Of a stretch of 32,000 bases of DNA, positions 6,743 through 30,691 are shown piece after piece. Under the pieces are notes generated by a model. The model was not told where the DNA came from. It worked only from the letters and a program-made list of their open reading frames with translations, and made no database searches. How positions within the stretch are numbered: the first letter of the stretch is position 1; each line of letters opens with the position of its first letter. Source of the DNA: an uncultured Alphaproteobacteria bacterium (GTDB lineage: Bacteria > Pseudomonadota > Alphaproteobacteria > Rs-D84 > CACZYB01); contig CAKQHZ010000001.1 in assembly GCA_934246625.1 (NCBI GenBank), positions 240,001 to 272,000 on the forward strand, given 5' to 3'. The position numbers and the translations under genes were made by a program.

Positions 6743-7330
6743 ATGATTTATGGATATACCAGAGTTTCAACTGAACTACAAAACACCGAAAATCAAAAAC
6801 ACGAAATTCAAACCTTTGTAAAGTCGCAGAAAATCAAGATTGACAAGTGGGTGGATGAAATAATTTCTTCCCGAAAATCATTAAAAGAAAGGCAACTGGG
6901 TAAACTTTTAAAACATCTTAAAAAAGGGGATATTTTGATTGCTTCGGAACTTTCAAGACTTGGCAGAAATTTGCTTGAAGTTATGGGAATTTTGCAAAGC
7001 TGTTTGGAAAAAGATTGCCAAATATGGACCTTAAAAGAAAACTATAAACTTGGTGCAGATATACAGTCAAAAGTCCTTGCATTTGCGTTTTCGTTGGCTG
7101 CTGAAATTGAGCGACAACTTATTTCTCAACGGACAAGGGAGTCATTAAAAAGGATAAAAGATGAAGGTAAACATCTTGGCCGGCCATTTGGATTTAGTTA
7201 TAAAAAACTTGATGCAAAGAAAGGTAAAATCCAAGAATTACTTTCAAAAGATATTTCCAAAGCCGAAATTGCAAGGCTTCTAGATTGTTCTTGGATAACA
7301 CTTCACAGGTATATACGAAAGTCATTGTAA
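6743..7330 (+). CDS. Small serine recombinase (resolvase/invertase family)
   Basis: Track ORF of 195 aa. The N-terminus MIYGYTRVSTELQNTENQ carries the catalytic Ser in the YxRVST context. It also has ELSRLGRN and a C-terminal HTH (KAEIARLLDCSWITLHRYI). Confidence 0.9.
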   Translation: MIYGYTRVSTELQNTENQKHEIQTFVKSQKIKIDKWVDEIISSRKSLKERQLGKLLKHLKKGDILIASELSRLGRNLLEVMGILQSCLEKDCQIWTLKENYKLGADIQSKVLAFAFSLAAEIERQLISQRTRESLKRIKDEGKHLGRPFGFSYKKLDAKKGKIQELLSKDISKAEIARLLDCSWITLHRYIRKSL

Positions 7331-10238: not shown

Positions 10239-10241
10239 GTT

Positions 10242-11210
10242 TTATCCTTTATCTGGAAAAATTCCCAAACATTTATGAAATTCTGTTCTTAATTCATTTA
10301 CAGATTTAAAAGGAATACAGAAGAAATGTATAACAAAAGAGTCTAATCCTTTCATTTTTAGTTTATTTTGAATAACTATATTCAATTTCGGTATTTCTTT
10401 TCGAATTTTCTTTTCTACATCTGAAATAGTTTCTTGATTGGGAGATTGAGGATAATAATTATCTTGTTCAAAGCCAACAAAAGCTATGGCTCTTATTTCG
10501 AGTTTATTAAATTTAGGACTATCTCTATCTAAATACTCCTTAAGTACATCTTCCATTTTTTTATCATTAAGATCTATAAACTGCTTTAATAGAATAAAAT
10601 CCCTATTATCTGCGGACAAGATACCACCATTCGCATTAAGTAAGGTATTTAAGCTATTTAAGCAATCTTCAACTGCGGTAGGAAAATCTTTATAAACTTT
10701 TGATTCTCCCCAATGTAAAGCTAAATTATTATCCTCTGTTAATCCAAGATATACTCCATCTGCACCATGGAAGTACATATTATGATTTGTTTTTAAATTC
10801 ATTTTACATATCACTTGGGGAATTTTTAAAAATTTTTCTGCTAATACAAATAAAATTAGTTCACCTAATTCACCTGACTTAACACTATCGACAAATGTTT
10901 CCTGTGCTTCTTGCCGTAATTTCATCATATTTCTGGTTGTTGAATTTTGGTTATCCCTATTTTTTGCTTCAACAATACGACTTCTTGGAATTACATAATC
11001 AATTATATCACAAACCACACAATCCACAAAATCTTTTGTTCGATCCCGTCCGTTGCCATCTAATTCAATACAATGCCAATAAGATATTGTTTCTGTTTCA
11101 TCTATCTTTTTTTCTTTTTCTACAGTGTGTAAGAAAGCTTCATAGCTATTGAAATCACCCCTAGCTAATCTATTTAATATACTCAATAAAAAATCTTCGT
11201 TCTCAGACAT
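10242..11210 (-). CDS. hamA: Hachiman HamA, DUF1837-like nuclease
   Basis: Track ORF of 322 aa. SGELGELILFVLAEKFL..., KMNLKTNHNMYFHGADGVYLG and LALHWGESKVY (D...ExK) match my memory of the DUF1837 signature. It is immediately upstream of the helicase. Confidence 0.75.
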   Translation of the reverse strand: MSENEDFLLSILNRLARGDFNSYEAFLHTVEKEKKIDETETISYWHCIELDGNGRDRTKDFVDCVVCDIIDYVIPRSRIVEAKNRDNQNSTTRNMMKLRQEAQETFVDSVKSGELGELILFVLAEKFLKIPQVICKMNLKTNHNMYFHGADGVYLGLTEDNNLALHWGESKVYKDFPTAVEDCLNSLNTLLNANGGILSADNRDFILLKQFIDLNDKKMEDVLKEYLDRDSPKFNKLEIRAIAFVGFEQDNYYPQSPNQETISDVEKKIRKEIPKLNIVIQNKLKMKGLDSFVIHFFCIPFKSVNELRTEFHKCLGIFPDKG

Positions 11211-11727: not shown

Positions 11728-12291
11728 ATGAAAAAGAAATGGGGATTTTTAAGAGAAACAAAAGAACTTGCTCAAAAAGCAGGAATTGATAAAGATACTG
11801 GTTTACACAGAAATGGTTTAGATGAATATTTAAATGTTATTTTTCCTCATGTTAATGATTGGATTCATGATAAATCTATTGATCTTGATGGAAAAAAATA
11901 TAGACCAGATTACAGAAGTGAAACATTAAAACTTATTGTAGAATTTGATGGACTTCCTCACTATACAAACCCTCAAAATATACTAAATGATATTGAAAAA
12001 ACAGAATTTTACAAAAAACACGAATATAAAGTTGTAAGAATTCCATACTTTATACAATTATCAAATAGTGTTGTTAAAAGTTTATTTAATGTAAATGTAA
12101 AAGAAGAATTATTTGATGAAAAGATACCATCCCTTGGAATACAAGGTCGAAATACTCCAGCTTTTCTTTGTGTAGCTGGAATTATTAGGATGAAGGAAGA
12201 ATTTAAAAAATTTCCGAGACAATATGAAGTTAATAAAAAAGCTCTTATAAAAGAAAACAATCCTTATTTAACAGGCGTAGATTTGATATAA
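11728..12291 (+). CDS. PD-(D/E)xK (DUF559/Vsr-like) endonuclease-fold protein
   Basis: Track ORF of 187 aa. KYRPDYRSETLKLIVEFDGLPHY...YKVVRIPYF resembles the RPD(F/Y)...vE.DG..H core of DUF559/Vsr-like proteins. Confidence 0.45.
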   Translation: MKKKWGFLRETKELAQKAGIDKDTGLHRNGLDEYLNVIFPHVNDWIHDKSIDLDGKKYRPDYRSETLKLIVEFDGLPHYTNPQNILNDIEKTEFYKKHEYKVVRIPYFIQLSNSVVKSLFNVNVKEELFDEKIPSLGIQGRNTPAFLCVAGIIRMKEEFKKFPRQYEVNKKALIKENNPYLTGVDLI

Positions 12292-13386: not shown

Positions 13387-13440
13387 TTTTAGTGGTGCCG
13401 GCACACGGACTCGAACCGCGGACCTGATGATTACAAATCA
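13387..13440. repeat. attL: 54-bp direct repeat containing the displaced 3' 48 nt of tRNA-Thr (13393-13440, minus)
   Basis: ttttagtggtgccggcacacggactcgaaccgcggacctgatgattacaaatca is identical to 30610-30663. Confidence 0.9.
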
Positions 13441-13566
13441 TAAGGGCTATTATTTTACAATTTTTGATTGTAATTTATTTTATTGTATAATCAATATGTT
13501 AAATCGTTTTATGAAAATTTTAAGATTTACCAAAATTGATGTATTTTGACCTTTTTTGATAAAAAA

Positions 13567-13653
13567 TACGGCAATAATTCGGCAATGAAAATTGAATAAA
13601 AATCCTTGATTTTAGCAATGTATATACTTATAATTAAATTATGATTCGGCAAT
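13567..13653 (+). promoter_or_regulatory. Candidate integrase arm-type binding sites (left arm)
   Basis: TACGGCAAT is at 13567-13575, and TTCGGCAAT is at 13578-13586 and 13645-13653. The same 9-mer recurs twice just inside attR. Confidence 0.45.
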
Positions 13654-13686: not shown

Positions 13687-14715
13687 ATGGAAAATAAAGG
13701 AAATATTATAATATACAAAGATGAAAATGGCACAGTTAAGGCTAATGCTTTATTTGCCAATGAAACTATATGGCTTACACAAAAAGGAATGAGTGAACTT
13801 TTTGATATAGACCCTTCTGGTATAAGCAAACATATACAAAATATATTTAATGACGGAGAATTGGCAGAAAACACGACTCTTGCAAAATTTGCAACTGTCG
13901 TAAATCGAGGTTTTCGTGGTCCAATAGAAGAGGAACTTGATTACTATAATCTTGATATGATTATTGCTGTCGGATATAGAGTAAATTCCAAAAAAGCAAC
14001 TGCTTTTCGTATTTGGGCGACAAATGTTTTAAAAGAATTTATTACAAAAGGCTTTATCCTTGATGATGAACGCTTAAAAAATGGAAATATGTTCGGTAAA
14101 GATTATTTTAGAGAATTATTAGAACGTATTCGTGATATTAGGATTAGTGAAAAAAGACTATATCAACAATTAAAAGATATTTACGCCCTTTCCGCTGATT
14201 ATACAAAAGATAATAAAGATGCCTTACGATTTTTTGCAACAGTCCAAAATAAAGTGCATTTTGCAATTACTGGAAAAACTGCTCCTGAAATTATATATGA
14301 AAGAGCAGACTCTGAAAAATCTAATATGGGACTTACATCTTGGAAAAATTCACCAAACGGAAAAATCTCCAAATCAGATATTGGTATTGCTAAAAATTAT
14401 CTTAATGATTCCGAATTACAAGATTTAAGGGGAATAATAAATATGTTCCTTGATTATGCAGAAATGCAAACAAGAAATAACAAACTAATTTATATGAAAG
14501 ATTGGGAAAAACGTCTTGACGACTTTATAAAATTTAATGAAAAGCAAGTTTTATCAAATGCCGGAAAGATATCTCGTATGACAGCACTAAGAAAAGCCTT
14601 TTCTGAATATGATAAATATAAAGAATTATTAAGAATAGAAGAAAAGGAACAAGCTGAAAAAGAAATAGAAACAGATATAAAAGAATTAAATGAAATTTTA
14701 GTGAAGAATAATTAG
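13687..14715 (+). CDS. RhuM-family protein
   Basis: Track ORF of 342 aa. IIIYKDENGTVKANALFANETIWLTQKGMSELFDI...YYNLDMIIAVGYRVNSKKATAFRIWATNVLKEFITKGFILDDERLKNG matches the RhuM signature as I remember it. Confidence 0.8.
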   Translation: MENKGNIIIYKDENGTVKANALFANETIWLTQKGMSELFDIDPSGISKHIQNIFNDGELAENTTLAKFATVVNRGFRGPIEEELDYYNLDMIIAVGYRVNSKKATAFRIWATNVLKEFITKGFILDDERLKNGNMFGKDYFRELLERIRDIRISEKRLYQQLKDIYALSADYTKDNKDALRFFATVQNKVHFAITGKTAPEIIYERADSEKSNMGLTSWKNSPNGKISKSDIGIAKNYLNDSELQDLRGIINMFLDYAEMQTRNNKLIYMKDWEKRLDDFIKFNEKQVLSNAGKISRMTALRKAFSEYDKYKELLRIEEKEQAEKEIETDIKELNEILVKNN

Positions 14716-14772: not shown

Positions 14773-15933
14773 ATGTCAAAACAATTTAACTTCACCAAAA
14801 AAGATATTGATGCATTGCCAGTGCCAAACAAAGGTTTTGCCACCTACTCTGACACAACGGAAAAAGGGTTGAAACTCTACATTACTCCAACAAGGACAAA
14901 GACTTTCTTTATTCGTAAATTTATAAATGGGCGGGATGAACGGCTTATCATAGGTCCGTATCCGGATTTGACTATTTCACAGGCGAGGGAGAAAGCAAGA
15001 ATTTTAAAGGGGACTATTGCAAACGGCATCAACCCAGCGGAGGAGAAAAGAAAACTTCGCCGTGATATGACCGTTGCGGAATTTTTTGATTACTACATTA
15101 CAAATTACTCCACAAAGAAAAAGCGCCCTAATTCCATCAGGTCGGAAAAAACTTTGTATAAAAATCATATTGCAGATTTTCTCGGGTATAAAAAGATGAC
15201 CTTGGTGCAAAAGGCGGACATTGAACGGATTTTAAAGCCCTTGGTAAATCAAGGCAACTTTGCCACAGCAAACAGGATACTTGCCCTGTTTTCTGGTATG
15301 TATAACAGAGCGATTGAATGGGGTTATCCCGATGAAAATCCGACAAAGGGGATAAAAAAGCAACGCGAAAAATCACGGGAGAGATTTTTGCAACCTGATG
15401 AATTGCCACGATTTTTTGAGATGTTAAACTCTGTTAAAAATGAGAATTTTAAAAACTATATATTGCTTTCACTTTTTACGGGGCAACGAAAAAATAATGT
15501 GCTTTCAATGAAATGGGAGCAGATAGATTTGTCGCTTGGGATTTGGTTTATACCACACACGAAAAATGGAGAAAGTTTGAATTGTGCGTTGAGTGATGAG
15601 GCAATAAAACTTCTCTCTGATATAAAACAAAATACAACCTCCGAGTGGGTTTTGCCAAGTGAAACTTCCTCCAGCGGGCATTATGAAGAGCCGAAACGGG
15701 CTTGGAGAACCTTGCTTAAAAATGCAGGGATTGAAAATTTACATCTTCATGATTTAAGGCGAACCCTTGGAAGCTATCAGGCGATAGGCGGTTCAAGTTT
15801 ACAAATAATTGGTCAATCTTTGGGACATAAATCCTTGCAATCTACACAAATATACGCCCGCCTTATCAAAGCTCCCGTCCGCCAAAGCACAAACATGGCC
15901 GTCGCGAAAATTTTGGAGTATGCGAAGAGGTAG
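14773..15933 (+). CDS. int: Tyrosine recombinase, P4-type island integrase
   Basis: Track ORF of 386 aa. The N-terminal arm-binding region is GLKLYITPTRTKTFFIRKFINGRDERLIIGPYPDLTISQAREKA. Catalytic residues are in LFTGQRKNNV, HLHDLRRT and LGHKSLQSTQIYA. Confidence 0.95.
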   Translation: MSKQFNFTKKDIDALPVPNKGFATYSDTTEKGLKLYITPTRTKTFFIRKFINGRDERLIIGPYPDLTISQAREKARILKGTIANGINPAEEKRKLRRDMTVAEFFDYYITNYSTKKKRPNSIRSEKTLYKNHIADFLGYKKMTLVQKADIERILKPLVNQGNFATANRILALFSGMYNRAIEWGYPDENPTKGIKKQREKSRERFLQPDELPRFFEMLNSVKNENFKNYILLSLFTGQRKNNVLSMKWEQIDLSLGIWFIPHTKNGESLNCALSDEAIKLLSDIKQNTTSEWVLPSETSSSGHYEEPKRAWRTLLKNAGIENLHLHDLRRTLGSYQAIGGSSLQIIGQSLGHKSLQSTQIYARLIKAPVRQSTNMAVAKILEYAKR

Positions 15934-17485: not shown

Positions 17486-18952
17486 ATGTTTTATGCAAAT
17501 TGGATATTTTTCTTAGGTGATAAAGAAAATAAATATAAAATTTTTGTATATGGACTTTCTTTACCAACAAATAAAAAAGAAAAATATGTTTCTAAATTAC
17601 AAAAACTTTGTAAAATTGATAATTATAATTTATATATGTTATGTGCAATTACAGAGATAAATAATATTATACAAGATAATACTATAAATTTATCAATTAT
17701 TTCTGATGAATTACCTCAAATAAAATATTTATGTTCAAAAAAATTTATTCAACCTGCTGACCCAGGAGAGGCATTGTCATATATTAAAAGTCCTATAAAT
17801 AGTTTAACAAATATTACTAGCTACTATACTAAAGAAATTTTAACAAAAGAGTTTTTAAACGAAGATTTAATTATTCTCTTGAAGCAATTAAATGATATAT
17901 TAAATCAAAGGTTTTATGGAGAATATTCAAAAAGATTAGGTTGCTTTGAAATAGGAGAAATACAAACTTGGGCAGAAGATATTATTCCATTTTATTTTAA
18001 ATTTGATAAAAATAATAATGACTATATTTTTCATAAAAGAAATGATTTTAAAGAAGATCTTTATATTGTTTTAAAATGTTATTTATCAGATAATGAGAAA
18101 ATATATGAAAATATAAAATTTGTTTCTAAAACAGATAATGATATTCAATTCAATGGAATTAAAGAGCATTGGATATATGAAGCTTCTATATATAATAATA
18201 CAGGAAATTTAATACATGAGGAAAAATATTTCTATACAAAACGTATTTGGTTAAATATATGTCCTAAACCTTCAAATAAAATAAAAATAGAAGATGTATA
18301 TTCTGAAAAAGATGCTAATTTAAGGACTGTAGATTCTGCTATATTTACTACTCAATCTATAGTAAATAATCCGTATATTGATATTAAATATGATGAAATA
18401 GAAAAATTACATAAAAATATAGAACAGAGAATAAACAATTATAAAATCTCTGAAAAAGAAGGAGCATTCTTTTCAGAAAAGGATAAATTAAATTCTATAA
18501 TAAATTATCTTAATTCTATTAACTTAAAAAATGATAAAATTATCATTATTGATCCTTATATTGATATAGATTCTTTATCATTAGGGTTGAGATTACATTC
18601 AAGCGAATTATTGGTGATTTCTTCAAAAAATCCGCCACATATGCCAAAATCCAGTATCAAGCAAAATATACAAAATATACTTAAAGTGAAAAAAGAAAAT
18701 AATATAAACAGTATTAAAGTTCATTTTATTGAAAAACGATTTCATGATAGATTTATTATATTTTTTAATAATCATGAAAAAGATATTTATAGTATATCAA
18801 ATAGTGTTAACTCCTTAAAAACAAATCCTAATATATTAATTACAAAATTAAATGGAAAAGTTAGATTTGATGTAGAAAAATATCTTGATACATTAATAGA
18901 ATTATGTAAACCAGAAAATACAGTTGAAGAAATTTTAAAAAATGATAAATAA
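17486..18952 (+). CDS. Unknown 488-aa protein; C-terminal DPYI...HDRF region reminiscent of MIT_C-type PLD-like domains
   Basis: Track ORF. The C-terminal segment is KIIIIDPYIDIDSLSLGLRLHSSELLVISSK...VHFIEKRFHDRFIIFFNNHEKDIYSISNSVNSL. I recognise no motif in the N-terminal part of about 330 aa. Confidence 0.55.
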   Translation: MFYANWIFFLGDKENKYKIFVYGLSLPTNKKEKYVSKLQKLCKIDNYNLYMLCAITEINNIIQDNTINLSIISDELPQIKYLCSKKFIQPADPGEALSYIKSPINSLTNITSYYTKEILTKEFLNEDLIILLKQLNDILNQRFYGEYSKRLGCFEIGEIQTWAEDIIPFYFKFDKNNNDYIFHKRNDFKEDLYIVLKCYLSDNEKIYENIKFVSKTDNDIQFNGIKEHWIYEASIYNNTGNLIHEEKYFYTKRIWLNICPKPSNKIKIEDVYSEKDANLRTVDSAIFTTQSIVNNPYIDIKYDEIEKLHKNIEQRINNYKISEKEGAFFSEKDKLNSIINYLNSINLKNDKIIIIDPYIDIDSLSLGLRLHSSELLVISSKNPPHMPKSSIKQNIQNILKVKKENNINSIKVHFIEKRFHDRFIIFFNNHEKDIYSISNSVNSLKTNPNILITKLNGKVRFDVEKYLDTLIELCKPENTVEEILKNDK

Positions 18953-20195
18953 AAAGTTTTGTTTTAAGAAATTAACTGATACTAAACCAGAAGTTGTATT
19001 GACTAATTTAATAAAAAAATTTAACTCTAGGAGAAATATTAAACTTATAAAATATGTTGAAGCATTATCATTATTATCTCATATAAGAAATGAAAAAATT
19101 TTTAAGTATCAATTAATAAAAATATTGAAAACAAAATTACTTAATAATATTTATAATAAATTAGAGGATTTACCTAGTACTTTTGATGAGATTAATATAG
19201 ATATATCAGAAATTGATAGTTTAATTAACTCAGAATTATCATATAAATTAATAGACAATATTGCAAAAACTGAAATTAATATAAATAAAAATTATAAATA
19301 TTATGGAATCCGTAACTTATTTCAATATTTATTGGAAATAGATTTACAAAATTTTGAAAAATTTATATCAGAAACAAATAGAGATGATTTTAAAATAATA
19401 TTTGTAAGTATTCTTTTATCTATATTTCCAATATTAGAAGATATATATAAAAATTGGGATAAAGCTACCTTAGGTATTTTACAGGCATATTATGCAAATA
19501 TATACTACAATAATAATCCTCACTATTGGCAATTTAATTTAAATAAAAATAAAGAGATTAATACAATATTAAAAACAAACTTACCTAATAAAAGTAAATT
19601 TATAATATATTTGAAGTATATTATTCAGAAATATCACGGTAAAAAATTCACTAATTTATTAAAAGATAGTGAAATTGACAATTTAGTAAATAACCTATTA
19701 TCTATAGATTATAACTTCACTTGTGAAGAACTATTTGCTCAATCTCCAGTTTTTTATTCTTCAATATATTTGATAATTATAGATAATGTTTCTGATAAAA
19801 AGAAACAATACGAATTTGCTTCTTTCTTATATGAAAAACTCATAAATTGTATTGAAAAAAATAATTCAGAATATTATGTTCAATACATAGAATATGCAAA
19901 TATATTGGGTGATTTAACTATAATTATGAATAATTTTGATAAACTAGATAAATTATTTAATCAAAATTATAAACAATTATTATTTCCATATAGTTTTTGT
20001 AAAAGACAAGATTGGAATGAAAAGATATTATTATTACTTTATATACTAATATCAATAAAAATAGTATATGATGGAAATGATATTTCCAACTACTTACATA
20101 AATTTAAAGAAGTAAAGGGCAAGCACTTGACAATGCTAGAAAAAATAAATCCTGATATCTATAATCAGATAATCAAACAATTAGACAATAATTAA
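18942..20195 (+). CDS. Unknown 417-aa, apparently all-helical protein, overlapping the upstream ORF by 11 nt
   Basis: Track ORF with no recognisable catalytic motif. The overlap with 17486-18952 suggests translational coupling. Confidence 0.5.
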   Translation: MINKKFCFKKLTDTKPEVVLTNLIKKFNSRRNIKLIKYVEALSLLSHIRNEKIFKYQLIKILKTKLLNNIYNKLEDLPSTFDEINIDISEIDSLINSELSYKLIDNIAKTEININKNYKYYGIRNLFQYLLEIDLQNFEKFISETNRDDFKIIFVSILLSIFPILEDIYKNWDKATLGILQAYYANIYYNNNPHYWQFNLNKNKEINTILKTNLPNKSKFIIYLKYIIQKYHGKKFTNLLKDSEIDNLVNNLLSIDYNFTCEELFAQSPVFYSSIYLIIIDNVSDKKKQYEFASFLYEKLINCIEKNNSEYYVQYIEYANILGDLTIIMNNFDKLDKLFNQNYKQLLFPYSFCKRQDWNEKILLLLYILISIKIVYDGNDISNYLHKFKEVKGKHLTMLEKINPDIYNQIIKQLDNN

Positions 20196-20277: not shown

Positions 20278-22086
20278 TTATGATTCTTTAATCTTATTCA
20301 ACCAAAATAAATACCATTTATCCTGAATATGTTCTTTAATTTTATTCTCAATACTAAGAGTATTCAATTTGTTATTTTCTAAACAAAAATTATATAGAAT
20401 TAAAAATTTAGATAAAGGATAACCCTTTTTATGTTTATTTTTAGGAAATAAATATTCTTTTAAATAATGTATATTTTTACATGATCTAATTTCATCCATA
20501 TTATAAATTACAGAAGATGCATCATTATAGTCACGTTGTAAAATGAAACTACGTAAATCATTGTATTCATCTTTTAAGTCTGGTAATAAACGAAAAAGAA
20601 TAGATGAAACTTGTCTAGTTAAAAATGAATTTTTGATCCAAAGATTTCGATATTTATTTATATGTTCATAGATAGATTTTGGTGTTTCATATTTAGCAGC
20701 AAACCATAAGTAACTATAAAAATTAAATTCTTTATCCTTAATAGTTAATGATTTTAAATATTTAGATATATAATTTATATTTTCAATATCCACTCTTGAA
20801 TATCCAATATTCCAATCTATAATTAAAGCAACCAATAAAAATAACGTTATATCATCATATCTTGTAATATTTATCAATGATTGAAAAATTTTATATGTTT
20901 TTTTAGTATATCCTAATTTATATAAATATTGACATACATTAGTTCTCAGATCTGAATATTCTTCAAAAATTCTTGGTAAATATTTTAAGATTTTAGTAAA
21001 ATTGTTATTTCCAGCAATAGTCAAAAATCTTTTTAAAACCTTATCAAAATTTTTATATTGTTTATTCTTGTTCCAATGTCTTCTAAAATATTTCATAAAC
21101 TCTTTTTCTTTTGGGGGATTTTTGTCAAATATATTTAATTGAATATTTTCGTCAAATAAAAAATGTCTTTTTGCCTCAGAAGCATCAAGAATCTTTGTTT
21201 TTGACATATTAAGAGACAATCCTCTACTTTTTAAAACATCAGATATATTGCTTAAAATTGACTTAGCCTCCCTTATATCATCAATACCAATAACAATATC
21301 ATCCATCCATCTTACAAAATTTTCATTTATTTGATATTTTAATAAGTAATCAATTTCAAAAAGAAAAGAATGTGCTAATAGTCTAATTGCTTCTAAATTA
21401 ATTGTAGGCATTCCAATTGATTGATTGGGTAAATAATCTGGTTTCCATGATAAATCTTCAATTATATTAAAAATTAAATCTAATAAAACTTCGTCACATT
21501 TGATATACCCAGAAACTACACTTCTTAACTCATTTAACCGTATACTATCAAAATAATTTGATAAATCTGTTATAATAATATATTTTTTTGTTTTTGTAAA
21601 TTGAAGAATTTCATTTTGATATATTTTCCATTGTTCAAACCAATCATTATAATCCGTATTTATTTCATGAGGAAGTTTAATAGAAGAACTTTTATCTCTA
21701 GAATAATAAGCATGATTTGAAGGTGCCTGTTTTTCTAAATCATTACAAAAAGGTTCTATAAGAGCTTGTAAAATAAGAGTGTCACTAGGAGATAAAATAA
21801 TCATATGGCGACAAATGCCAAATTTTTTCTCTAATGTATATATAATTGGTATTTGCGATTTATATTGACCAGAAATAATTTGTTCATTAATTTTACTTGT
21901 ATTATAATCTATTCTTCTATGAAAATCATAAAAATCATGTAAATCAAGAATACTCATACTCCTTACTTGACTCTTAACTTTATGTTTCCATAATGTTTTT
22001 AAAGTATCCTTTTTAAATGGATTTTCTAACTGTTTTTGCCTTTTTTTAAATCTTAACGTTATAGGTTTAGACATTTTAAAACTCAT
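20278..22086 (-). CDS. Reverse transcriptase of the UG/Abi (defence-associated) type with a long helical C-terminal extension
   Basis: Track ORF of 602 aa. RT motifs: ILSPSDTLILQALIEPF (2), YIIITDLSNYFDSI (A), FVRWMDDIVIG (C) and LSLNMSKTKI (D/E). About 270 aa of helical C-terminus follow, including EIRSCKNIH (R-x5-H). Confidence 0.8.
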   Translation of the reverse strand: MSFKMSKPITLRFKKRQKQLENPFKKDTLKTLWKHKVKSQVRSMSILDLHDFYDFHRRIDYNTSKINEQIISGQYKSQIPIIYTLEKKFGICRHMIILSPSDTLILQALIEPFCNDLEKQAPSNHAYYSRDKSSSIKLPHEINTDYNDWFEQWKIYQNEILQFTKTKKYIIITDLSNYFDSIRLNELRSVVSGYIKCDEVLLDLIFNIIEDLSWKPDYLPNQSIGMPTINLEAIRLLAHSFLFEIDYLLKYQINENFVRWMDDIVIGIDDIREAKSILSNISDVLKSRGLSLNMSKTKILDASEAKRHFLFDENIQLNIFDKNPPKEKEFMKYFRRHWNKNKQYKNFDKVLKRFLTIAGNNNFTKILKYLPRIFEEYSDLRTNVCQYLYKLGYTKKTYKIFQSLINITRYDDITLFLLVALIIDWNIGYSRVDIENINYISKYLKSLTIKDKEFNFYSYLWFAAKYETPKSIYEHINKYRNLWIKNSFLTRQVSSILFRLLPDLKDEYNDLRSFILQRDYNDASSVIYNMDEIRSCKNIHYLKEYLFPKNKHKKGYPLSKFLILYNFCLENNKLNTLSIENKIKEHIQDKWYLFWLNKIKES

Positions 22087-22156
22087 TAAATATTATTTTG
22101 CAAAAATATATTATCTTTATAAGTCTTTTTCAATAAAAAATATGAATTATTATCTT

Positions 22157-25100
22157 TTATCCAAACAATCTATCCAGTTCTTCTTCTAAAATACCTTCCT
22201 TAACAAGAGGAAGTGTATCAACTTGTTTCAAATTATGTTTTTGAATGAAATTTTCATTATCGAAACCAAGGATATATGATATAGCAATACGATAAATTAT
22301 TTCTGTCGGTGCTAATCCATAAACTTGCTTTTCAAAAATATGCTTTAATCTATCTTTTGAATCAGGATAAATCTTTATCAATTTAGGATTATTATATAAT
22401 CGTTTTACAATTTCAGTGATATATAATCCTGATTTCATATATAAATCAATAAATGTTTTATCTGGATCTGTAAAGCAATCTGGACATTCTTTTTCTAAAT
22501 TATCTACCATTTCTTTTACTACTTTTTTAGGCGTAAAGATTTGGTTTGTTTTTTGTGGTGGAATATAATCAAAAATATCCTCAGTGTTATTTTCATCAAA
22601 ATAATTGGAAAGTTTAGTTTTCAAATTTAAGAATTCCTTAATGGAATCATTGAAAACAATAGGATCAAATAGATGTCCATCAAAATGCTCCATTTTTCCT
22701 GTTTTTTCATCTTTATAATCTCCACCATCACGTAAAAACTTAAATTCAGCAAGAGAAATACTTGTAACTTCTTTAAATACTTCATCTGGTATAATTGTAT
22801 CAAAGTTTTCTAATGTTGTGTTTTCATTACCATAAGCCATTAAAAATGAAGGTATTGTTCTTGAAAAACCTCTTAAATAGTCTCGAACTGAATCTTCTAT
22901 GGCTGTTTTTTCTTTTTGCCTTTTATCTGTTTCTACTCTTTCAATAATTGTATTTCCTGTATTTTGAATAAGTTCAGGAAGTTTATTCTTCAATTCTGAA
23001 ATAAATGTTGTTTTGTTTTCAGCAACTTTCAAATCATATAGTTCATTAATTTTATCTTTTTCAAAATCAGATGCTGTTTTTAATTCTTTTTTTCGTTCTA
23101 ATTCTGTCTGATTTTGTAAGATTTTATAATTACCATATTCTTTATCAAAAACCTGATTTGTTGTATTTAATATTGTTTGAGTAATTTTCTTTAAAGAGCT
23201 GGTTGTTACAGCATTTTTGTAGTTTGTTTTTACTGTATCAACAAAAGTTTCTTCAACTTTAGCTTTAAATGTATCTTTTAATTCTTTTAATTTCTCATCA
23301 TCTTGTTCAGGTTGGTTATTTTGCAATTCATTTACAGTTTCAACTAAATCTTTATTAATACTTTCATAAATCTTATCTCCAAATATTTCATTCGCTTGAC
23401 CAATAATAAAGTTTTGTGAAAGTTCTACTTCTCCATCTTCATTTAAAGATAAATCATCTTTTGTATTTTGATTAATTGGTAAAGGTTCTTTTGTCTTTTC
23501 AAATTTTTTTATAATATCAACAACTTCTTGTGGTGCATTGAATATGTTTCCAATATTCTGGAATAAGAAATTACTCATAAAACCACGTTGAACGACTTCT
23601 TGTGCATGGATTTTACGAGGAATAGATAATACCTGTTCAGCCTTAAGAAGTATCATTTCACCATCCTCATCTTCACCATAAACAGGGAAAAAGTTTAAAA
23701 GTTCTCTAACATTTTGTTTCCTTGTATCACTATCACCTTGTCCACTTGTTGTATTTATACTTAAATCGTTAGCAAATTTTTCAACAATTTCCAAAGTTCT
23801 TGCTGGATCAAAATCAAATACATAAGCATTTTCTTTTCTAAAGAATTGTCTATCTTTATGGAATATACAAGGATTTTGCGACCTGAAAGCTGTTTGCATA
23901 TATAATGCTGGACTTTTAACATTACCAAGCATTAAAACTGCTGTCCATTCAGGAATTGTAATTCCAGTAGTTAATTGTCCTACAGATAGAGTAATTGTCT
24001 TTTCATAATTCTTTATGCCATTAACAACTTTATTAAATGCATTTTCACGTTCTTCGTCTTCATTAAGTTTACCATCCCCAGCGGCAACAATAATTTCATA
24101 ATTTTTAAATATAGGGTGATTTTTTAATTTTTTTGCCAAAGCTTTAACACTACCAACTCTATCTAAAAACCAGAATGTATGATTAAGTTCATCTCTTAAT
24201 TCTTGAGTTGAAAATGGAAATTTAGTTTTTATAGTTAATGCATCCAAAAATTTATCAACGGCTTCATCATACTTAAAACTTCCATTTTCATTTGTTGAAA
24301 AGAATTCATTCAAATCAAAAGCATATTCTCTAATATCATCATCAGATAAATTGCATCCCTGTTTTACCTTGTCTTCAATAATATCTGACATCTTATATGT
24401 ATAAAGATTTAATTGAGGTAAGTTTTGATAAGGATTTTCTTCTTCGTTTGATGTATCCCAATTTTTTTTTGCATTTTGTTCATCAGCATAAGTCCAATTA
24501 AATATAGCTTTCTCTTCAAATTTATTATTTGCTAAAGCTTTAAATGGCGTTCCAGATAAATGAAGTGTAAATTTTCTTTTTATTTGATCAAAGGCAATGT
24601 CAGTATGATATGTATCAACACCTTCATGTGCTTCATCAATTACTAATAAATCCCAGTCTAAATCTTTAATCTCTTTAAGTTTATCATATTTTCCACCAAA
24701 GTAGATTGACCCTTTTAAATCTTGTAATGATACAAATTCAATACATCCTTTATGATTTCCATCGTTAAGTTTATTTAAGTATTCTTCTCTTGATAGAACA
24801 TATTCTTTACTTTTCAAAGTACTAACTTGACTAACAAAATAATATCCTGAATTGGTACCTAAAAACCTTTCATAATCAGCATACCAAGAATTAGCAATAG
24901 CTGGTCTATTCGTTACAATTAAAACTTTTTTTGCATTTATCTGTTTGCATAAGTCATAAGTTGATAATGTTTTACCAAATCTAGGTTTTGCATTCCATAA
25001 AAATTCTGGTTCATCATCTTTATGACTTTCAAAATATTCTTTTGTTTGAGAAACAGCATTAAATTGCTCATTTCTAAGTTTGTATTCTATTACAGGTTTT

Positions 25101-25456
25101 GTTTCTAAAATTCCTCTGTTTTCTTTAAATTCATAAAATTTTTCTTTTGAATCTTTTGGGGATATTTTAAACCATTCTGTATCCGGTTTTCTTTCAATAT
25201 TGTTTTTCTTAAGGTAAGCGTGAAAATCTGTATCATGGAAAACCTCGCCAGAACCATCCTCATATATAGCATTAGATTTCCATTCCAATACAAATTTTAC
25301 ATCTGCAGTTTGAGTTTGCTGTTTTATACGAGTTTCGACATCTTGTTCTGTAAAACCAATCTTTGTCCATCCATCATGTTCTTTAATCTCAGGAGTTGTA
25401 TATGCATAACACATAGGGACAATTTTCTTTAATGTTTTAATATTTAGTTTTACCAT
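22157..25456 (-). CDS. GIY-YIG/T5orf172-like nuclease domain + SF2 (Res-like) helicase + C-terminal methyltransferase-N-half-like region
   Basis: The track ORF runs to 25492. I prefer the ATG at 25454-25456 (MVKLNIK...), which has GGAG about 9-12 nt upstream and abuts the upstream stop. N-terminus: WTKIGFTEQDVETRIKQ...HAYLKK...TEWFKIS. Helicase: KPRFGKTLST (I), LLVIDEAHEG (II), LSGTPF (III) and LYMQTAFRSQNP (VI-like). C-terminus: NQIFTPKKVVKEMVDNL...KTFIDLYMKSGLYITEIV...KQVYGLAPTEIIYRIA. Confidence 0.75.
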   Translation of the reverse strand: MVKLNIKTLKKIVPMCYAYTTPEIKEHDGWTKIGFTEQDVETRIKQQTQTADVKFVLEWKSNAIYEDGSGEVFHDTDFHAYLKKNNIERKPDTEWFKISPKDSKEKFYEFKENRGILETKPVIEYKLRNEQFNAVSQTKEYFESHKDDEPEFLWNAKPRFGKTLSTYDLCKQINAKKVLIVTNRPAIANSWYADYERFLGTNSGYYFVSQVSTLKSKEYVLSREEYLNKLNDGNHKGCIEFVSLQDLKGSIYFGGKYDKLKEIKDLDWDLLVIDEAHEGVDTYHTDIAFDQIKRKFTLHLSGTPFKALANNKFEEKAIFNWTYADEQNAKKNWDTSNEEENPYQNLPQLNLYTYKMSDIIEDKVKQGCNLSDDDIREYAFDLNEFFSTNENGSFKYDEAVDKFLDALTIKTKFPFSTQELRDELNHTFWFLDRVGSVKALAKKLKNHPIFKNYEIIVAAGDGKLNEDEERENAFNKVVNGIKNYEKTITLSVGQLTTGITIPEWTAVLMLGNVKSPALYMQTAFRSQNPCIFHKDRQFFRKENAYVFDFDPARTLEIVEKFANDLSINTTSGQGDSDTRKQNVRELLNFFPVYGEDEDGEMILLKAEQVLSIPRKIHAQEVVQRGFMSNFLFQNIGNIFNAPQEVVDIIKKFEKTKEPLPINQNTKDDLSLNEDGEVELSQNFIIGQANEIFGDKIYESINKDLVETVNELQNNQPEQDDEKLKELKDTFKAKVEETFVDTVKTNYKNAVTTSSLKKITQTILNTTNQVFDKEYGNYKILQNQTELERKKELKTASDFEKDKINELYDLKVAENKTTFISELKNKLPELIQNTGNTIIERVETDKRQKEKTAIEDSVRDYLRGFSRTIPSFLMAYGNENTTLENFDTIIPDEVFKEVTSISLAEFKFLRDGGDYKDEKTGKMEHFDGHLFDPIVFNDSIKEFLNLKTKLSNYFDENNTEDIFDYIPPQKTNQIFTPKKVVKEMVDNLEKECPDCFTDPDKTFIDLYMKSGLYITEIVKRLYNNPKLIKIYPDSKDRLKHIFEKQVYGLAPTEIIYRIAISYILGFDNENFIQKHNLKQVDTLPLVKEGILEEELDRLFG

Positions 25457-25457
25457 A

Positions 25458-25838
25458 TTACACCATCTCCTTTTTATCCAATTGAATTCCATTTACTTTT
25501 GTTTTTAATTGTTCAATTAGTTTATATTTATGTTTTTTGATATAATATTTACGTAAAAATAAAGAAATAATTTCTATAAATAATCCAATAAAATAAATAT
25601 ACACGTTATCTATATATAAAGTTTCAAAAATATTAGAAATGGTAAAAGATAAGATACCAACACATTTTAAATATCTTTCTTTTAAATATTCTTCTATCAA
25701 ATTTGTATTACAATCTAAATATGTTGAACTTTTTGCTAAAATATGCTCATCTGAATCTAAATTACATATTATTAATATAATACCAAATATTTGCAAAATA
25801 AGTTTTAATACAGTAGATAAACTTAAATAAATAAACAT
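25458..25838 (-). CDS. Small multi-pass membrane protein inside the methylase/helicase gene train
   Basis: Track ORF of 126 aa. The hydrophobic segments are LSTVLKLILQIFGIILIICNL, CVGILSFTISNIF and VYIYFIGLFIEIISLFL. GGAG lies upstream of the ATG. Confidence 0.5.
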   Translation of the reverse strand: MFIYLSLSTVLKLILQIFGIILIICNLDSDEHILAKSSTYLDCNTNLIEEYLKERYLKCVGILSFTISNIFETLYIDNVYIYFIGLFIEIISLFLRKYYIKKHKYKLIEQLKTKVNGIQLDKKEMV

Positions 25839-25853
25839 TTTTACTCATCTCCT

Positions 25854-26843
25854 TTAGACAGTTTTTTGTTCAATATACTTTATTTCTTCTAATGTAAGAT
25901 TATATTTTTCATATAAATCTTTGTTGTTCCATTTCTTTGAAAAATCTTGGATAGGTACAAATTTATAAACATTTCTTGCTGCATTTTGTGATTTTTTTAT
26001 TTGAGATATTAAGTATTTATATAGATTAGTATTCATATATGAAATAACATTTTCACATATTTCTTTACTATCAAATGGTCCCACAACTAAATATGTTTCA
26101 TTACAAGCTGTTCCTGGTGCTCCATAGAATGGTAATCCATTAAATTTTGCAGAAATTTCTCCTGCTTTTGATACATAAACTTTATGCTGATCAATCCATT
26201 CTTTTTTAGAAATAATTTTATTTCTATCTATATATGCAAACTTTTCATCTGAACGATCTCGAGAAAATCTATAAATTTTAATGGAATTTTTTTCTTTTTT
26301 ATTTGAAAAATAATTTTTATAATTTCCAACTTTTCCATTAGCAAAAGGAGAATATGTTGAAACTAAATCCATAAATGATGCAAAATCTTTAGAATATATT
26401 CCAACTTTAGTTACTATTTCATCAGCTTTTGGATCTCTTATAAAAAATTCTGTTCCATGTTCAGCCATGTTCCTAATATCTGTTTTCACTATATCGCCAT
26501 CTATATAGGTATATTTTGTATGTGCTGTAACATTTTTATCATATATAAAGTATGATACACCACCAGCTAAGGAAATATTTGTTTGAAAAACCTTATTTGC
26601 ATCAGTATAATCAACCATAGATGAAATATGATTATTTTTTAACATAAATTTTCTAAATTCATCTAAACCAGTTCCACCTGTCATCCATAAACTTGGTGTA
26701 ATCATAGAAACATAATTAGCTTTTAAATTAATTGCACTTTGTACAAAATGATGATAAACAGGATTTGCTTGAGAAATAGATCCTGAATTATTTGCAACTA
26801 ATTCCTGATAAGGTGGGTTTCCAATTATAACATCAAACTTCAT
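25854..26843 (-). CDS. N6-adenine DNA methyltransferase, C-terminal half (motif IV NPPY plus putative target-recognition domain)
   Basis: Track ORF of 329 aa that begins MKFDVIIGNPPYQ, so it lacks the AdoMet-binding motifs X and I. AAAGGAG lies 7 nt upstream of the ATG. It overlaps the upstream ORF in ATGA. Confidence 0.8.
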   Translation of the reverse strand: MKFDVIIGNPPYQELVANNSGSISQANPVYHHFVQSAINLKANYVSMITPSLWMTGGTGLDEFRKFMLKNNHISSMVDYTDANKVFQTNISLAGGVSYFIYDKNVTAHTKYTYIDGDIVKTDIRNMAEHGTEFFIRDPKADEIVTKVGIYSKDFASFMDLVSTYSPFANGKVGNYKNYFSNKKEKNSIKIYRFSRDRSDEKFAYIDRNKIISKKEWIDQHKVYVSKAGEISAKFNGLPFYGAPGTACNETYLVVGPFDSKEICENVISYMNTNLYKYLISQIKKSQNAARNVYKFVPIQDFSKKWNNKDLYEKYNLTLEEIKYIEQKTV

Positions 26844-27775
26844 TTTTTAGCTCCTTTCAAATCTTTGAAATAGATAGTTTTTCCACTACGCCAATCTTTG
26901 ATTTTGCAAAGTATTGGTGTCGAAAGTTGTATATCTGTATTAAATAAATCTGGTTGAAAATAATCTTCTTCTGTTGTTGCAAATGGTACAGTATCGTTTA
27001 AACCATCCATCTGCCATATATTCCATGAAATAATATTTGCAATTTGCTCAATCTGTATAAGACTTGGTTCTTTATGATATTTATTCTGATAGTAATCAAT
27101 AAAAGTCCAAAGCAAATTTTCCCTTGCCAATAATAAATTATCGCCTTGGTATTCATAACCATAGGTACTTTCAAATGCTCGCTTAACCCAATTAAACCAA
27201 TCTGTATCATTATTTGTGTTTTCGTTAACGACACGAAGTTTTCTATCTAAAATACCTATACGTTTTATGATTGGTAAGATTTCACCAGTTGTGGTATCAT
27301 ATCTTGAAACTAAATATGGTGCCTCACCACAAGTAATTTCAAGTCTTCTTGAATCGACATAACTTTTCCAATCCTTGTCGTTAAAATCTATAAATCTTTC
27401 ATTTGGTATCCAATCTTGATTTTGTTGGATATTGAATACATTTTTGTAACCAAACCATTCTTCATCACAAAGATTATTCATTTCATTACAAATCCAAGAT
27501 GGAGTGAAAACTTCTGCTGATTTATGGGTACGATTTTTTTGTTCTTCTTTGTTTTTGGCAATTCTTGGCTGAATAATAGAGGTATTCTTATCAATAATTA
27601 ATTCAGGTAAGATTTCTTTTTCTTTTGAATAATCATCACCATATTTTAGATATTCATCGCATGCCCAATGGATATATCTCCCTGTTGTCTTATCCCTTAG
27701 TAATATCTTTAAAAGATAAGGACTTAAGACATGTATATATTGCTCAAGAATATCTATGTTACTTTCAATAACCAT
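26840..27775 (-). CDS. N6-adenine DNA methyltransferase, N-terminal half
   Basis: Track ORF of 311 aa. It has AEVFTPSWICNEMNNL (motif X-like) and LEITCGEAPYLVSRYD (motif I region), and ends ...DLKGAKK directly before the NPPY ORF. Confidence 0.7.
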   Translation of the reverse strand: MVIESNIDILEQYIHVLSPYLLKILLRDKTTGRYIHWACDEYLKYGDDYSKEKEILPELIIDKNTSIIQPRIAKNKEEQKNRTHKSAEVFTPSWICNEMNNLCDEEWFGYKNVFNIQQNQDWIPNERFIDFNDKDWKSYVDSRRLEITCGEAPYLVSRYDTTTGEILPIIKRIGILDRKLRVVNENTNNDTDWFNWVKRAFESTYGYEYQGDNLLLARENLLWTFIDYYQNKYHKEPSLIQIEQIANIISWNIWQMDGLNDTVPFATTEEDYFQPDLFNTDIQLSTPILCKIKDWRSGKTIYFKDLKGAKK

Positions 27776-27891: not shown

Positions 27892-28500
27892 TTATATATG
27901 CTTTTGTAAATGATTTTTTATATATTTATTGAGTGTTGGTTTAGTAATTTTTAGTTTTTTTGCAACAATATATTTGGGTAATCCTAATCTTAAAAGACTA
28001 ATGATTTTATCTTTTTTCTCTTCAAGTTTATTGTGCTTATTTTTACTTCCCTTCGGTCTTCCAATTGTGGAACCTTCTAAAAGTCTGCGTTTCAATCCCT
28101 CTATAGTCCTTTGACTTATCAAATCTCTTTCCATCTCTGCAAATGCACTTAAGATTGCTATCATCATCTTTCCCATAGGGGTGTTATCAATCGACATTCC
28201 TTGCTTTACAAGATAACAATTCACACCTTTTTTCACAAGCAACTGACAAGTATTTATAACATCACTTGTTGATCTTCCAAGTCTAGATAGTTCTGATGTT
28301 ATAAGCACGTCTCCTTTATCCAATATTTTTAGTAAGGTTCCCAGTTTACGTTTCTTTGCAAGAATTGTGCCACTGACACCTTCATCAATATATTCTTTAT
28401 CTATTTTCCAATTCATTCTGTTTACAAAATCTATTACTCCAAGTTTTTGACTTTCATAGTTTTGCAATTCTGTAGATACTCTGTAATATGCATATATCAA
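27892..28500 (-). CDS. Small serine recombinase (resolvase/invertase family)
   Basis: Track ORF of 202 aa. It has MIYAYYRVSTELQNYESQ, ELSRLGRS and a C-terminal HTH (KYIVAKKLKITKPTLNKYI). Confidence 0.9.
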   Translation of the reverse strand: MIYAYYRVSTELQNYESQKLGVIDFVNRMNWKIDKEYIDEGVSGTILAKKRKLGTLLKILDKGDVLITSELSRLGRSTSDVINTCQLLVKKGVNCYLVKQGMSIDNTPMGKMMIAILSAFAEMERDLISQRTIEGLKRRLLEGSTIGRPKGSKNKHNKLEEKKDKIISLLRLGLPKYIVAKKLKITKPTLNKYIKNHLQKHI

Positions 28501-28832
28501 TTATCTTTCTCCTGTTCCATTTCTAAAAGTTCTTGGATTTCTTTAAAGTTTTCAATATCCTTTATTTTTTCTTCCTCATCAATAAACTGTAAAATAAGAC
28601 AAATAGCCCTTACATCTCCATTTAATCCCTTTTGTATAAGTGATATACATAATTTCTCTTTAAAACTAATTCCATCAGGTGATTTATTTTCCAATAAGTC
28701 ATTTAATATTTTCTTAAATTTTCGTTTTTCTCTTCTTACTTTACCGCTGGCAATACCACCTTTTTGAGCAATTTTTCTTTGTTCTTCCGTGGTTCGTTTA
28801 TTTATTGGTATTAAGTTTTTATTATTTGACAA
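28497..28832 (-). CDS. Small basic protein (KGG-type motif), function unknown
   Basis: Track ORF of 111 aa. It contains RTTEEQRKIAQKGGIASGKVRREKRKFK and overlaps the recombinase start by 4 nt. Confidence 0.5.
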   Translation of the reverse strand: MSNNKNLIPINKRTTEEQRKIAQKGGIASGKVRREKRKFKKILNDLLENKSPDGISFKEKLCISLIQKGLNGDVRAICLILQFIDEEEKIKDIENFKEIQELLEMEQEKDN

Positions 28833-30408: not shown

Positions 30409-30526
30409 AATATACCCTTCTATTTTAAAATAGATACAGCTACTATTCTACTTCTTATATCCAGCTCTATTTTAAATATAATTCCACAATAATCAAATCT
30501 TTTTCCCCTGCAAATTTCTGCAAAAA

Positions 30527-30546
30527 TTCGGCAATGATTCGGCAAT
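30527..30546 (+). promoter_or_regulatory. Candidate integrase arm-type binding sites (right arm)
   Basis: TTCGGCAAT occurs at 30527-30535 and 30538-30546, in the same orientation as the three copies near attL. Confidence 0.45.
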
Positions 30547-30615
30547 GGAAATTTTGCACGCAAAACTCATCGTTCTTACTAACTTCATAACTCATTGATT
30601 TTTGGATGGTTTTAG

Positions 30616-30691
<76 letters not shown>

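Follow-up and report, generated by a model that had tools for sequence, protein, structure and literature searches.

Do five genes that lie head to tail on one strand, and that encode two halves of a DNA methylase, a small membrane protein, a nuclease-helicase and a reverse transcriptase (RT), form a single composite defence system, or are they separate modules that share a neighbourhood? This question is raised by a stretch of 32,000 nucleotides (nt) from an uncultured Alphaproteobacteria bacterium (contig CAKQHZ010000001.1, positions 240,001 to 272,000; the whole stretch is called here the window), a human-gut organism with a low content of guanine and cytosine (GC, ~27%). A preliminary description of the window had put the five genes forward as a candidate composite system and, as a fallback, had allowed that the RT might simply be a neighbour in a defence island; it is the fallback that is borne out by neighbourhood data in both directions. 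The region very probably consists of modules carried as independent cargo by a 17.2-kb integrative island at a tRNA-Thr gene, the RT being separate from the methylase-helicase module, and it is best called a defence island in which a little-studied Type ISP-like or YeeABC-like restriction variant stands beside an independent RT.

All five open reading frames (ORFs) were found on the minus strand where they had been described (Table 1). They encode the N-terminal part of the methylase (MT_N, 311 amino acids, aa), its catalytic half with the NPPY motif (MT_C, 329 aa), the membrane protein (126 aa), the nuclease-helicase (1111 or 1099 aa, with starts at 25492 or 25456) and the RT (602 aa); for the helicase, homologues and gene callers concur on the start at 25456, one base past the stop of the membrane ORF. 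With this start the junctions also agree with the first reading, and comprise an ATGA overlap between MT_N and MT_C followed by gaps of 15, 1 and 70 nt. The domain assignments hold as well: in Pfam the NPPY ORF matches Eco57I, the large ORF matches T5orf172 and ResIII (with a weak Helicase_C match in addition) and the last ORF matches RVT_1, and each of the methylase halves matches a separate full-length PADLOC MTase_II profile. A canonical restriction endonuclease is indeed absent, and the sole nuclease-like domain is fused to the helicase.

The linkage of the RT to the other genes was examined by tblastn of the window proteins against 85 RT loci of other organisms, which comprise the three closest relatives (67-70% identity) and 82 loci from a genome-wide scan across many phyla, and against 83 helicase loci. 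The conserved linkage expected of a composite system was not found: a relative of the helicase or of MT_C occurs in 1 of the 85 RT loci (L022), and the three closest RT relatives adjoin unrelated genes and serine recombinases. Moreover, when the ORFs within 4 kb of the RT were clustered in 70 usable loci, no family appeared in more than 4 loci, and those few came from closely related genomes. In the reverse direction, no RT was detected by tblastn in the 83 helicase loci, and a Pfam census of the first downstream ORF of 64 helicase loci gave no RVT_1; these downstream ORFs are heterogeneous and include GmrSD, PDDEXK_2, AAA_15/AAA_13, AbiTii, RhuM and housekeeping genes. Two loci, L179 and L183, have a helicase 95% identical to that of the window (the MT_N of L183 is 99% identical) and carry the recombinase, MT_N, MT_C and the helicase, followed by a convergent unrelated gene, without RT and without membrane gene. 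The DNA similarity to the window runs from 28502 (L183) to 22171 (both loci), 14 nt before the helicase stop codon, and the spacer between helicase and RT (22087-22156) is, to judge from sequence comparison, the junction of two unrelated cassettes. What stands of the composite proposal is a single unit made up of both methylase halves with the membrane ORF and the nuclease-helicase; the RT as its trailing component is not supported, since 84 of the 85 RT loci are without such partners. Judged by its neighbourhoods, the RT is an independent neighbour, unrelated to the methylase-helicase module.

The same counts in both directions, together with the modules that have a 95%-identical helicase, lack an RT and share a sharp similarity breakpoint, make it very improbable that all five genes are one composite system, in which the RT would act with or downstream of the methylase/helicase (the helicase-nuclease making substrates for the RT, for example, or an RT product gating restriction). 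Two observations do speak for this alternative and weigh against a separate RT. The first is that the RT and the helicase are co-directional, tightly packed and 70 nt apart with no terminator-like site in the gap, so that their co-transcription in the island is possible. A promoter/terminator pair in this gap, which the preliminary description had named as a sign of separate units, was not found, as a terminator-like site is lacking and the promoter-like TTGAAA-17-TATATT at 22133-22105 belongs to a class of matches no commoner here than in shuffled sequence. The second is the sole other co-occurrence of RT and helicase that was found, in a Bdellovibrio defence island (L022, 7265-19249), where a related Eco57I methylase and a helicase of 821 aa lie no more than 2 kb from a UG13a RT and where SIR2_2, Peptidase_M91 and GIY-YIG/DUF4357 genes are also present; there, however, the order differs, the RT being upstream of the methylase-helicase pair, on the opposite side of the module, with another ORF between. 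The arrangement of the window is kept in all 8 retrieved copies of the island, but these are one element and not independent observations. A further point in favour of the alternative comes from PMC9226505, as in other UG groups (UG25, UG35) the RT is joined to a methylase or associated with a UvrD helicase.

Taken by itself, the RT is a new but unremarkable member of UG13a. The kinship with UG/Abi RTs that had been suspected was confirmed by classification with group hidden Markov models (HMMs), RT_UG13a matching with 593 bits over profile positions 3-588 of 589 and the next best group being UG21 at 8e-28 (PADLOC). Motifs A (TDLSNYFDSI) and C (RWMDDIVIG) are present, with D174, D262 and D263 invariant in 15 sequences. 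The long helical tail is also real: in the AlphaFold2 model (predicted local distance difference test, pLDDT, 80; predicted template modelling score, pTM, 0.81) the RT core is followed by an all-helical, repeat-like C-terminal half (residues 302-601 form helices throughout, mostly at pLDDT 80-96). The best fold matches in the PDB are hexameric DRT6, AbiA, UG15/DRT4, AbiK and Abi-P2, over ~500-670 aligned columns, at a sequence identity to these solved relatives of only 13-16%. By its modelled C-terminal helical domain and these fold matches, the RT is a Class-1-like UG/Abi enzyme.

Class 1 DRTs carry out untemplated synthesis (PMC13174585), and DRT4 is a single gene whose product makes random single-stranded DNA without a template (PMC12783706). 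By analogy with AbiK, Abi-P2 and DRT4, the window RT would most likely act alone on infection, as an oligomer, and make untemplated, possibly protein-primed, single-stranded DNA; it would need neither a non-coding RNA (ncRNA) nor any neighbouring gene. A tyrosine of an N-terminal RT loop, Y53, is invariant and could, by analogy with AbiK, be a priming residue. Template-independent stand-alone synthesis would also explain why no ncRNA is visible. The gap upstream of the RT shows no structured ncRNA, as had been noted (Rfam gives only the tRNA in the window), the flanks of 80+ RT homologues, compared over 300 nt on each side, have conserved sequence in common only among close relatives, and the regions upstream of the closest RT relatives do not align with the spacer. 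An ncRNA partner near the RT was rejected, there being no Rfam match and no conserved flanks.

Two of the three closest UG13a relatives sit shortly downstream of a serine-recombinase gene or fragment (L010, 6114-9862; L011, 667-1506); in L011 the recombinase is immediately upstream of the RT, and in L010 a 151-aa ORF lies in between. The RT gene may travel on recombinase-mobilised cassettes. Convergent with the RT in the window are two overlapping genes (17486-20195, plus strand), of which the first encodes 488 aa, with a domain of the VPA1262 family at the N-terminus (NCBIfam, 6e-23), and the second a 417-aa protein without matches. The pair is present in all island copies and absent from every other RT and helicase locus; it was rejected as a partner of the RT because the genes are absent from all 85 other RT loci, and it may be another uncharacterised defence pair.

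The second module, from the recombinase to the helicase (28500-22157), is a putative recombinase-associated, ATP-dependent restriction-modification-like system, whose methylase-helicase core is conserved in 80+ loci. Its helicase protein has >8000 relatives at E<1e-20, mostly of ~1094-1106 aa, and because nearly all of the 120 best fall within 1094-1124 aa, the lack of an NPPY half is the norm of the family and not a truncation. The N-terminus matches T5orf172/MUG113 of the GIY-YIG clan. Over seven sequences, down to 28% identity (numbering of the 1111-aa form), the GIY-YIG-type residues Y29, Y31, K44, G46, R55, H91 and E106 are invariant, and so are those of the motor: G173 and K174 of Walker A, D286, E287 and H289 of the DEAH motif, S313-P316 (SGTP), and Q533 and R537 of motif VI. 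The C-terminal end, which the earlier reading had left out, is a further methylase N-part (N', residues ~975-1111) with an FTP motif and a degenerate motif I, nearly invariant in 21 relatives. N' aligns with residues ~975-1100 of a fused 1445-aa homologue on an E. faecium plasmid, which goes on at 1104 with LKFDVIIGNPPYQ, and it ends exactly where the NPPY half of that homologue begins. N' and MT_N were also considered as paralogues; profile comparison gave the FTP motif only, at a probability of 47%, and the idea was rejected.

The methylase itself is divided in a recurrent way. MT_N bears an FTP motif X and a motif I-like LEITCGEAPYL; MT_C starts MKFDVIIGNPPYQ, with GNPPYQ at its start and a conserved NPPY motif, and has an AGGAG ribosome-binding site of its own upstream in addition to its ATGA coupling with MT_N. 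MT_N was detected in 64 of the 83 helicase loci and MT_C in 77; most of the other contigs are truncated. Identity across loci is 24-36% for MT_C, 40-69% for MT_N and 48-67% for the helicase. The usual order is MT_N-MT_C-helicase (59 loci), with one fused methylase ORF of ~680 aa in 33 and a split one in 26; the split falls again and again directly before FD(V/F)(I/V)IGNPPY. Elsewhere MT_C follows the helicase, either fused to it (L161, L168, L172 and the E. faecium locus L001) or as a separate cistron (L165, L169, L170, L176), and one locus is ordered helicase, MT_N, MT_C. Complete loci in which MT_N is detected always have two methylase N-parts (MT_N and N') and one catalytic/recognition half. 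A programmed -1 frameshift or phase variation at the A6 run of the MT_N/MT_C junction was considered and rejected, because the coupled junctions of other split loci differ among themselves (TGAGATG, TAAGGGCATG and others), lack a slippery run and have in every case a ribosome-binding site of their own. In one locus (L107, 1760-3100) a 1.3-kb insertion, which includes an 89-aa ORF on the opposite strand, parts MT_N from MT_C; it is thus more evidence that the junction before motif IV tolerates interruption.

MT_C is a swappable specificity cassette. The MT_C of L183 is only 26% identical to that of the window and lies between flanks that are 92-94% identical in DNA; similarity breaks off at the NPPY motif (~26804) and resumes where the helicase starts (25473), which shows that the specificity part is exchanged as a cassette. 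The small serine recombinase travels with the module, since the similarity to L183 starts next to it, at 28502, and a resolvase is detectable in 13 of the 83 helicase loci. Shuffling of the methylase parts by an invertase was rejected, as no convincing long inverted repeats surround these parts in the window.

The membrane protein between MT_C and the helicase is also real, with two strong hydrophobic segments and one weaker one by hydropathy. Its ORF lies on an insertion (Table 1) flanked by 10-nt direct repeats, AAAGGAGATG, of which L179 has a single copy at its uninterrupted MT_C/helicase junction; the insertion duplicates the ribosome-binding site, and therefore both the membrane ORF and the helicase can still be translated. 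The family is rare: an exhaustive HMMER search of 1.84 billion representatives gave 8 matches, the query's own cluster included, and a profile search of 5.8 billion proteins gave 10 clusters; no member was found by family HMM in the other 83 helicase loci or the 85 RT loci, nor by tblastn in plasmids. In L180 a homologue with 32% identity has an Eco57I methylase on one side and, on the other, a T5orf172-ResIII helicase of 834 aa that shares 34% identity with the window's and is without N'; start and stop codons overlap. Another belongs to a five-gene operon in the locus P0272, a cluster of the DnmA-YeeB-YeeC type; the operon comprises an MmeI-like methylase, a 146-aa ORF, the membrane homologue, a 684-aa protein and a T5orf172 protein, and Hachiman genes come after it. 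Since the family recurs inside these two other methylase-helicase-T5orf172 operons, the protein is probably a rare, optional accessory of such systems. That it is instead an unrelated hitch-hiker, or a spurious ORF in A/T-rich DNA, functionally unlinked to the module, seems unlikely, although the gene is missing both from the closest relatives and from the 83 other helicase loci, nothing in Pfam, PADLOC or NCBIfam matches it, and two other family members lie after AbiEii or near a serine recombinase. Against a hitch-hiker stand the columns conserved across the family (Q16, G19, I33, S37, T39, Y56, K102, K106), the location of 3 of 5 contexts inside methylase/superfamily 2 (SF2) helicase/T5orf172 operons of three architectures, with overlapping start/stop codons in 2, and the duplicated ribosome-binding site that leaves both genes translatable. 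In L155 (2835-3284, plus strand) the slot between MT_C and the helicase is filled by a different gene, a soluble 149-aa ORF; this slot may serve more generally as a place where accessory genes insert.

How might such a module work? MT_N and MT_C would form a gamma-class N6-adenine methylase that methylates a target set by MT_C and so protects host DNA. The 1099-aa protein provides an SF2 translocase and a GIY-YIG-like nuclease; as it is without a recognition domain of its own, it would gain specificity from the methylase/recognition subunit, on which it would dock, possibly via N'. At unmodified sites it would then translocate on ATP and cut the DNA, and ATP-driven translocation followed by cutting of unmodified DNA is the mode of Type ISP, Type I and Type III enzymes. 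Specificity is altered by exchange of the MT_C cassette between conserved flanks, and the membrane protein would be an optional extra, with membrane tethering or an effector function as candidate roles. In PADLOC, the REBASE-derived Type IIG profile PDLC03626 matches both the helicase and the methylase of the shorter relative L180, and it also spans the methylase end of the fused protein from E. faecium, so that curators already regard fused relatives as putative restriction-modification enzymes; of the window's own module, PADLOC recognised only the methylase pieces.

Several points weigh against this reading. Both restriction and methylation by the family are putative, and no experimental characterisation of the methylase/T5orf172-helicase family was found in the literature and profile libraries searched. 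The window helicase falls below the threshold of the PADLOC Type IIG profile; it has no sequence match to solved structures in the PDB, its AlphaFold2 model is poor (pLDDT 62, pTM 0.37), and the top fold matches of this low-confidence model are Snf2, Rad5, RadD, RIG-I and SauUSI, with no Type ISP structure among them. The docking role of N' is a guess, because N' and MT_N share the FTP motif only. As regards the island as a whole, a passage of Mestre et al. 2022 (PMC9226505) lists UG13a among the groups with an 'inconclusive' defence prediction. Finally, DnmA-YeeB-YeeC of B. subtilis gives no phage protection (PMC9973331).

This last observation bears on the alternative that the methylase-helicase module does not restrict at all, being an orphan or epigenetic methylase with a decayed or repurposed partner, as was proposed for B. 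subtilis dnmA-yeeB-yeeC, which has neither a phage nor a transformation phenotype (PMC9973331), or serving an anti-restriction or establishment function of mobile elements. Relatives do occur on plasmids and beside recombinases and relaxases, and the helicase's own methylase part is incomplete, with a degenerate motif I. We hold this quite unlikely: down to 28% identity the residues of the nuclease, of Walker A, of DEAH and of motif VI do not vary; the recognition cassette is hypervariable and exchanged between near-identical flanks, as is typical of phage-driven diversifying selection; the neighbours are mostly defence genes; and in Vibrio crassostreae deletion of dnmA or yeeB increases sensitivity to some phages (PMC9973331). 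The putative restriction-modification function is the one that we retain, and the family may work in a manner so far undescribed. The C-half goes with MT_N in the N-C-H order and with N' in the N-H-C order, as a fusion or as a separate cistron in both cases, and because loci with MT_N have two N-parts and one C-half, a single C-half (motif IV onward) might pair in trans with MT_N for modification or with N' for restriction, so that one cassette would reprogram both; the membrane protein, found in three methylase-helicase-T5orf172 architectures, might in turn tether such systems to the membrane or add an abortive-infection output. We offer this as a tentative idea, possible but doubtful.

Both modules are carried by an island whose bounds are perfect 54-nt direct repeats, both copies being the 3' part of tRNA-Thr(tgt) (Table 1), with 17.2 kb between them. 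It contains a tyrosine integrase, RhuM, the VPA1262-like gene pair, the RT, the helicase/methylase genes, the small serine recombinase and small helix-turn-helix/replication-like ORFs. The exact island proteins occur on about 8 contigs and the chromosomal transglycosylase beside the island on 56, which argues for an accessory element. Near-identity DNA searches of plasmids and phages gave as sole matches 120 nt in an E. faecium methylase-helicase gene, plus tRNAs.

Table 1. Positions in the window of the genes and sequence elements discussed in the text
Feature	Position	Strand	Remarks
Other island end	13387-13440		perfect 54-nt copy of tRNA-Thr 3' part
Tyrosine integrase	14773-15933	+	Pfam families; inside island
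UG13a RT, stand-alone	20278-22086	-	602 aa; PADLOC RT_UG13a 2.3e-178
A/T-rich helicase-RT spacer	22087-22156	-	70 nt; L179/L183 similarity ends at 22171; no Rfam match
T5orf172 (GIY-YIG-like) nuclease - SF2 helicase/translocase - coiled-coil - methylase N-part (N')	22157-25456	-	1099 aa; Pfam T5orf172, ResIII
N', methylase N-part ending helicase protein	22160-22570	-	QIFTPKKVV, DLYMKSGLY, VYGLAPTE
Small membrane protein, 126 aa	25458-25838	-	on 382-nt insertion relative to L179, L183
10-nt direct repeat, second copy	25464-25473	-	just upstream of helicase start codon
10-nt direct repeat, first copy	25846-25855	-	ribosome-binding-site region, flanks insertion
MT_C, catalytic NPPY half + target-recognition domain	25854-26843	-	Pfam Eco57I 8e-24; PADLOC PDLC03375 full length
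MT_N, gamma-class N6-adenine methylase N-terminal part, own cistron	26840-27775	-	PADLOC MTase_II PDLC03390 full length, 3e-102
Small serine recombinase (Mpi-like invertase/resolvase)	27892-28500	-	Pfam Resolvase 4e-35, NCBIfam Mpi family
tRNA-Thr(tgt)	30616-30691	-	contains 54-nt repeat copy 30610-30663 (island end)

Other features of the island and its surroundings were also recorded. Inside the island, near both ends, lies a 32-nt direct repeat, AAAAATWCGGCAATRATTCGGCAATGRAAATT, with copies 91% identical at 13562-13593 and 30522-30553, which may be putative arm-type binding sites for integrase/excisionase. A RhuM-family protein (13687-14715, plus strand; Pfam 1e-104, PADLOC candidate PDC-S05 1e-134) adjoins the island integrase. 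Just beyond the island is a complete Hachiman system (7647-11210, minus strand), with HamA at 10242-11210 (PADLOC 3.5e-106) and HamB at 7647-10238 (1.5e-278), flanked by a second small serine recombinase (6743-7330, plus strand; Resolvase 2e-31) and a DUF559/Vsr-like protein (11728-12291, plus strand). In another strain (L003) RhuM is instead followed by a C5 DNA methylase and an HNH_2 gene, so that the area beside the island looks like a variable defence hotspot. Small resolvases lie repeatedly beside defence modules across loci (e.g. L095, L097, L183). Farther away, GC falls to 17.6% at 1001-2000, overlapping a 308-aa ORF (1021-1947, minus strand) without Pfam match.

The separation of the two modules removes a tempting but false candidate for an RT-containing composite defence system, and it speaks for regarding UG13a as a stand-alone RT, which makes experimental testing simpler. 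At the same time it draws attention to a widespread family (>8000 proteins) of putative ATP-dependent restriction-like systems, in which the nuclease is of the GIY-YIG type, the methylase is naturally divided ahead of motif IV and specificity is switched by cassettes; a rare membrane protein ties this family to the DnmA-YeeB-YeeC clusters, whose function has been debated.

Among known systems, the RT resembles UG13a, AbiK, Abi-P2, DRT4 and DRT6 in being a single gene with motifs A and C, a helical C-terminal half and no conserved partner. Joint action of an RT with a methylase and a helicase has a precedent in UG25 and UG35, whose RT and methylase form one protein (UG35 being accompanied by a UvrD-like helicase); unlike these groups, the window RT belongs to UG13a, has no methylase domain and shows no conserved linkage. 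The methylase-helicase module differs from classical Type II/IIG (Eco57I-like) enzymes, since no PD-(D/E)xK endonuclease was found in it and the methylase's partner has Walker A and DEAH motifs. It has more in common with Type ISP enzymes, which combine a nuclease, an SF2 helicase-like motor, a helical linker, a gamma N6-adenine methylase and a recognition domain: among relatives of the window protein there are fused forms on a single chain, the window methylase is of the gamma N6-adenine class with an NPPY motif (GNPPYQ, Eco57I) and a variable recognition C-half, and the MT_C swap in L183 parallels the exchange between LlaGI and LlaBIII, where the recognition part differs and the remainder is >90% identical (PMC3553950). 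Unlike in Type ISP, these parts are distributed over three cistrons in the window (the recognition domain is that of MT_C, upstream of the helicase), and a single chain occurs in relatives only; the nuclease is T5orf172/GIY-YIG-like and not an Mrr-family PD-(D/E)xK one; the NPPY/recognition half is attached to a different methylase N-part, and an extra MT_N protein is present.

DnmA(YeeA)-YeeB-YeeC consists of an MmeI-like methylase, a DEAD helicase and a GIY-YIG/T5orf172 protein (Morgan 2009, PMC2731913; PMC9973331), and Morgan et al. predicted that the methylase of YeeA/YeeB/YeeC gives specificity and protection and that separate helicase and GIY-YIG subunits cut (PMC2731913). The window module has the same three activities, the methylase gene first, and a place in a defence island next to recombinases; the SF2 helicase and T5orf172 follow the methylase, though fused in one 1099-aa protein, and one operon of the DnmA-YeeB-YeeC type (P0272) bears the same membrane-protein family. 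It is unlike DnmA-YeeB-YeeC in that its methylase is of the Eco57I type (only Eco57I and PADLOC MTase_II matches, no MmeI_* domains), that T5orf172 is fused at the helicase N-terminus, and that it has an extra methylase N-part and a methylase split before motif IV. In the strict sense the module is thus not Type ISP, because its parts are not on one chain and an Mrr nuclease is absent, nor is it DnmA-YeeBC, because it has no MmeI-type methylase; on the evidence available, it would nevertheless work like both.

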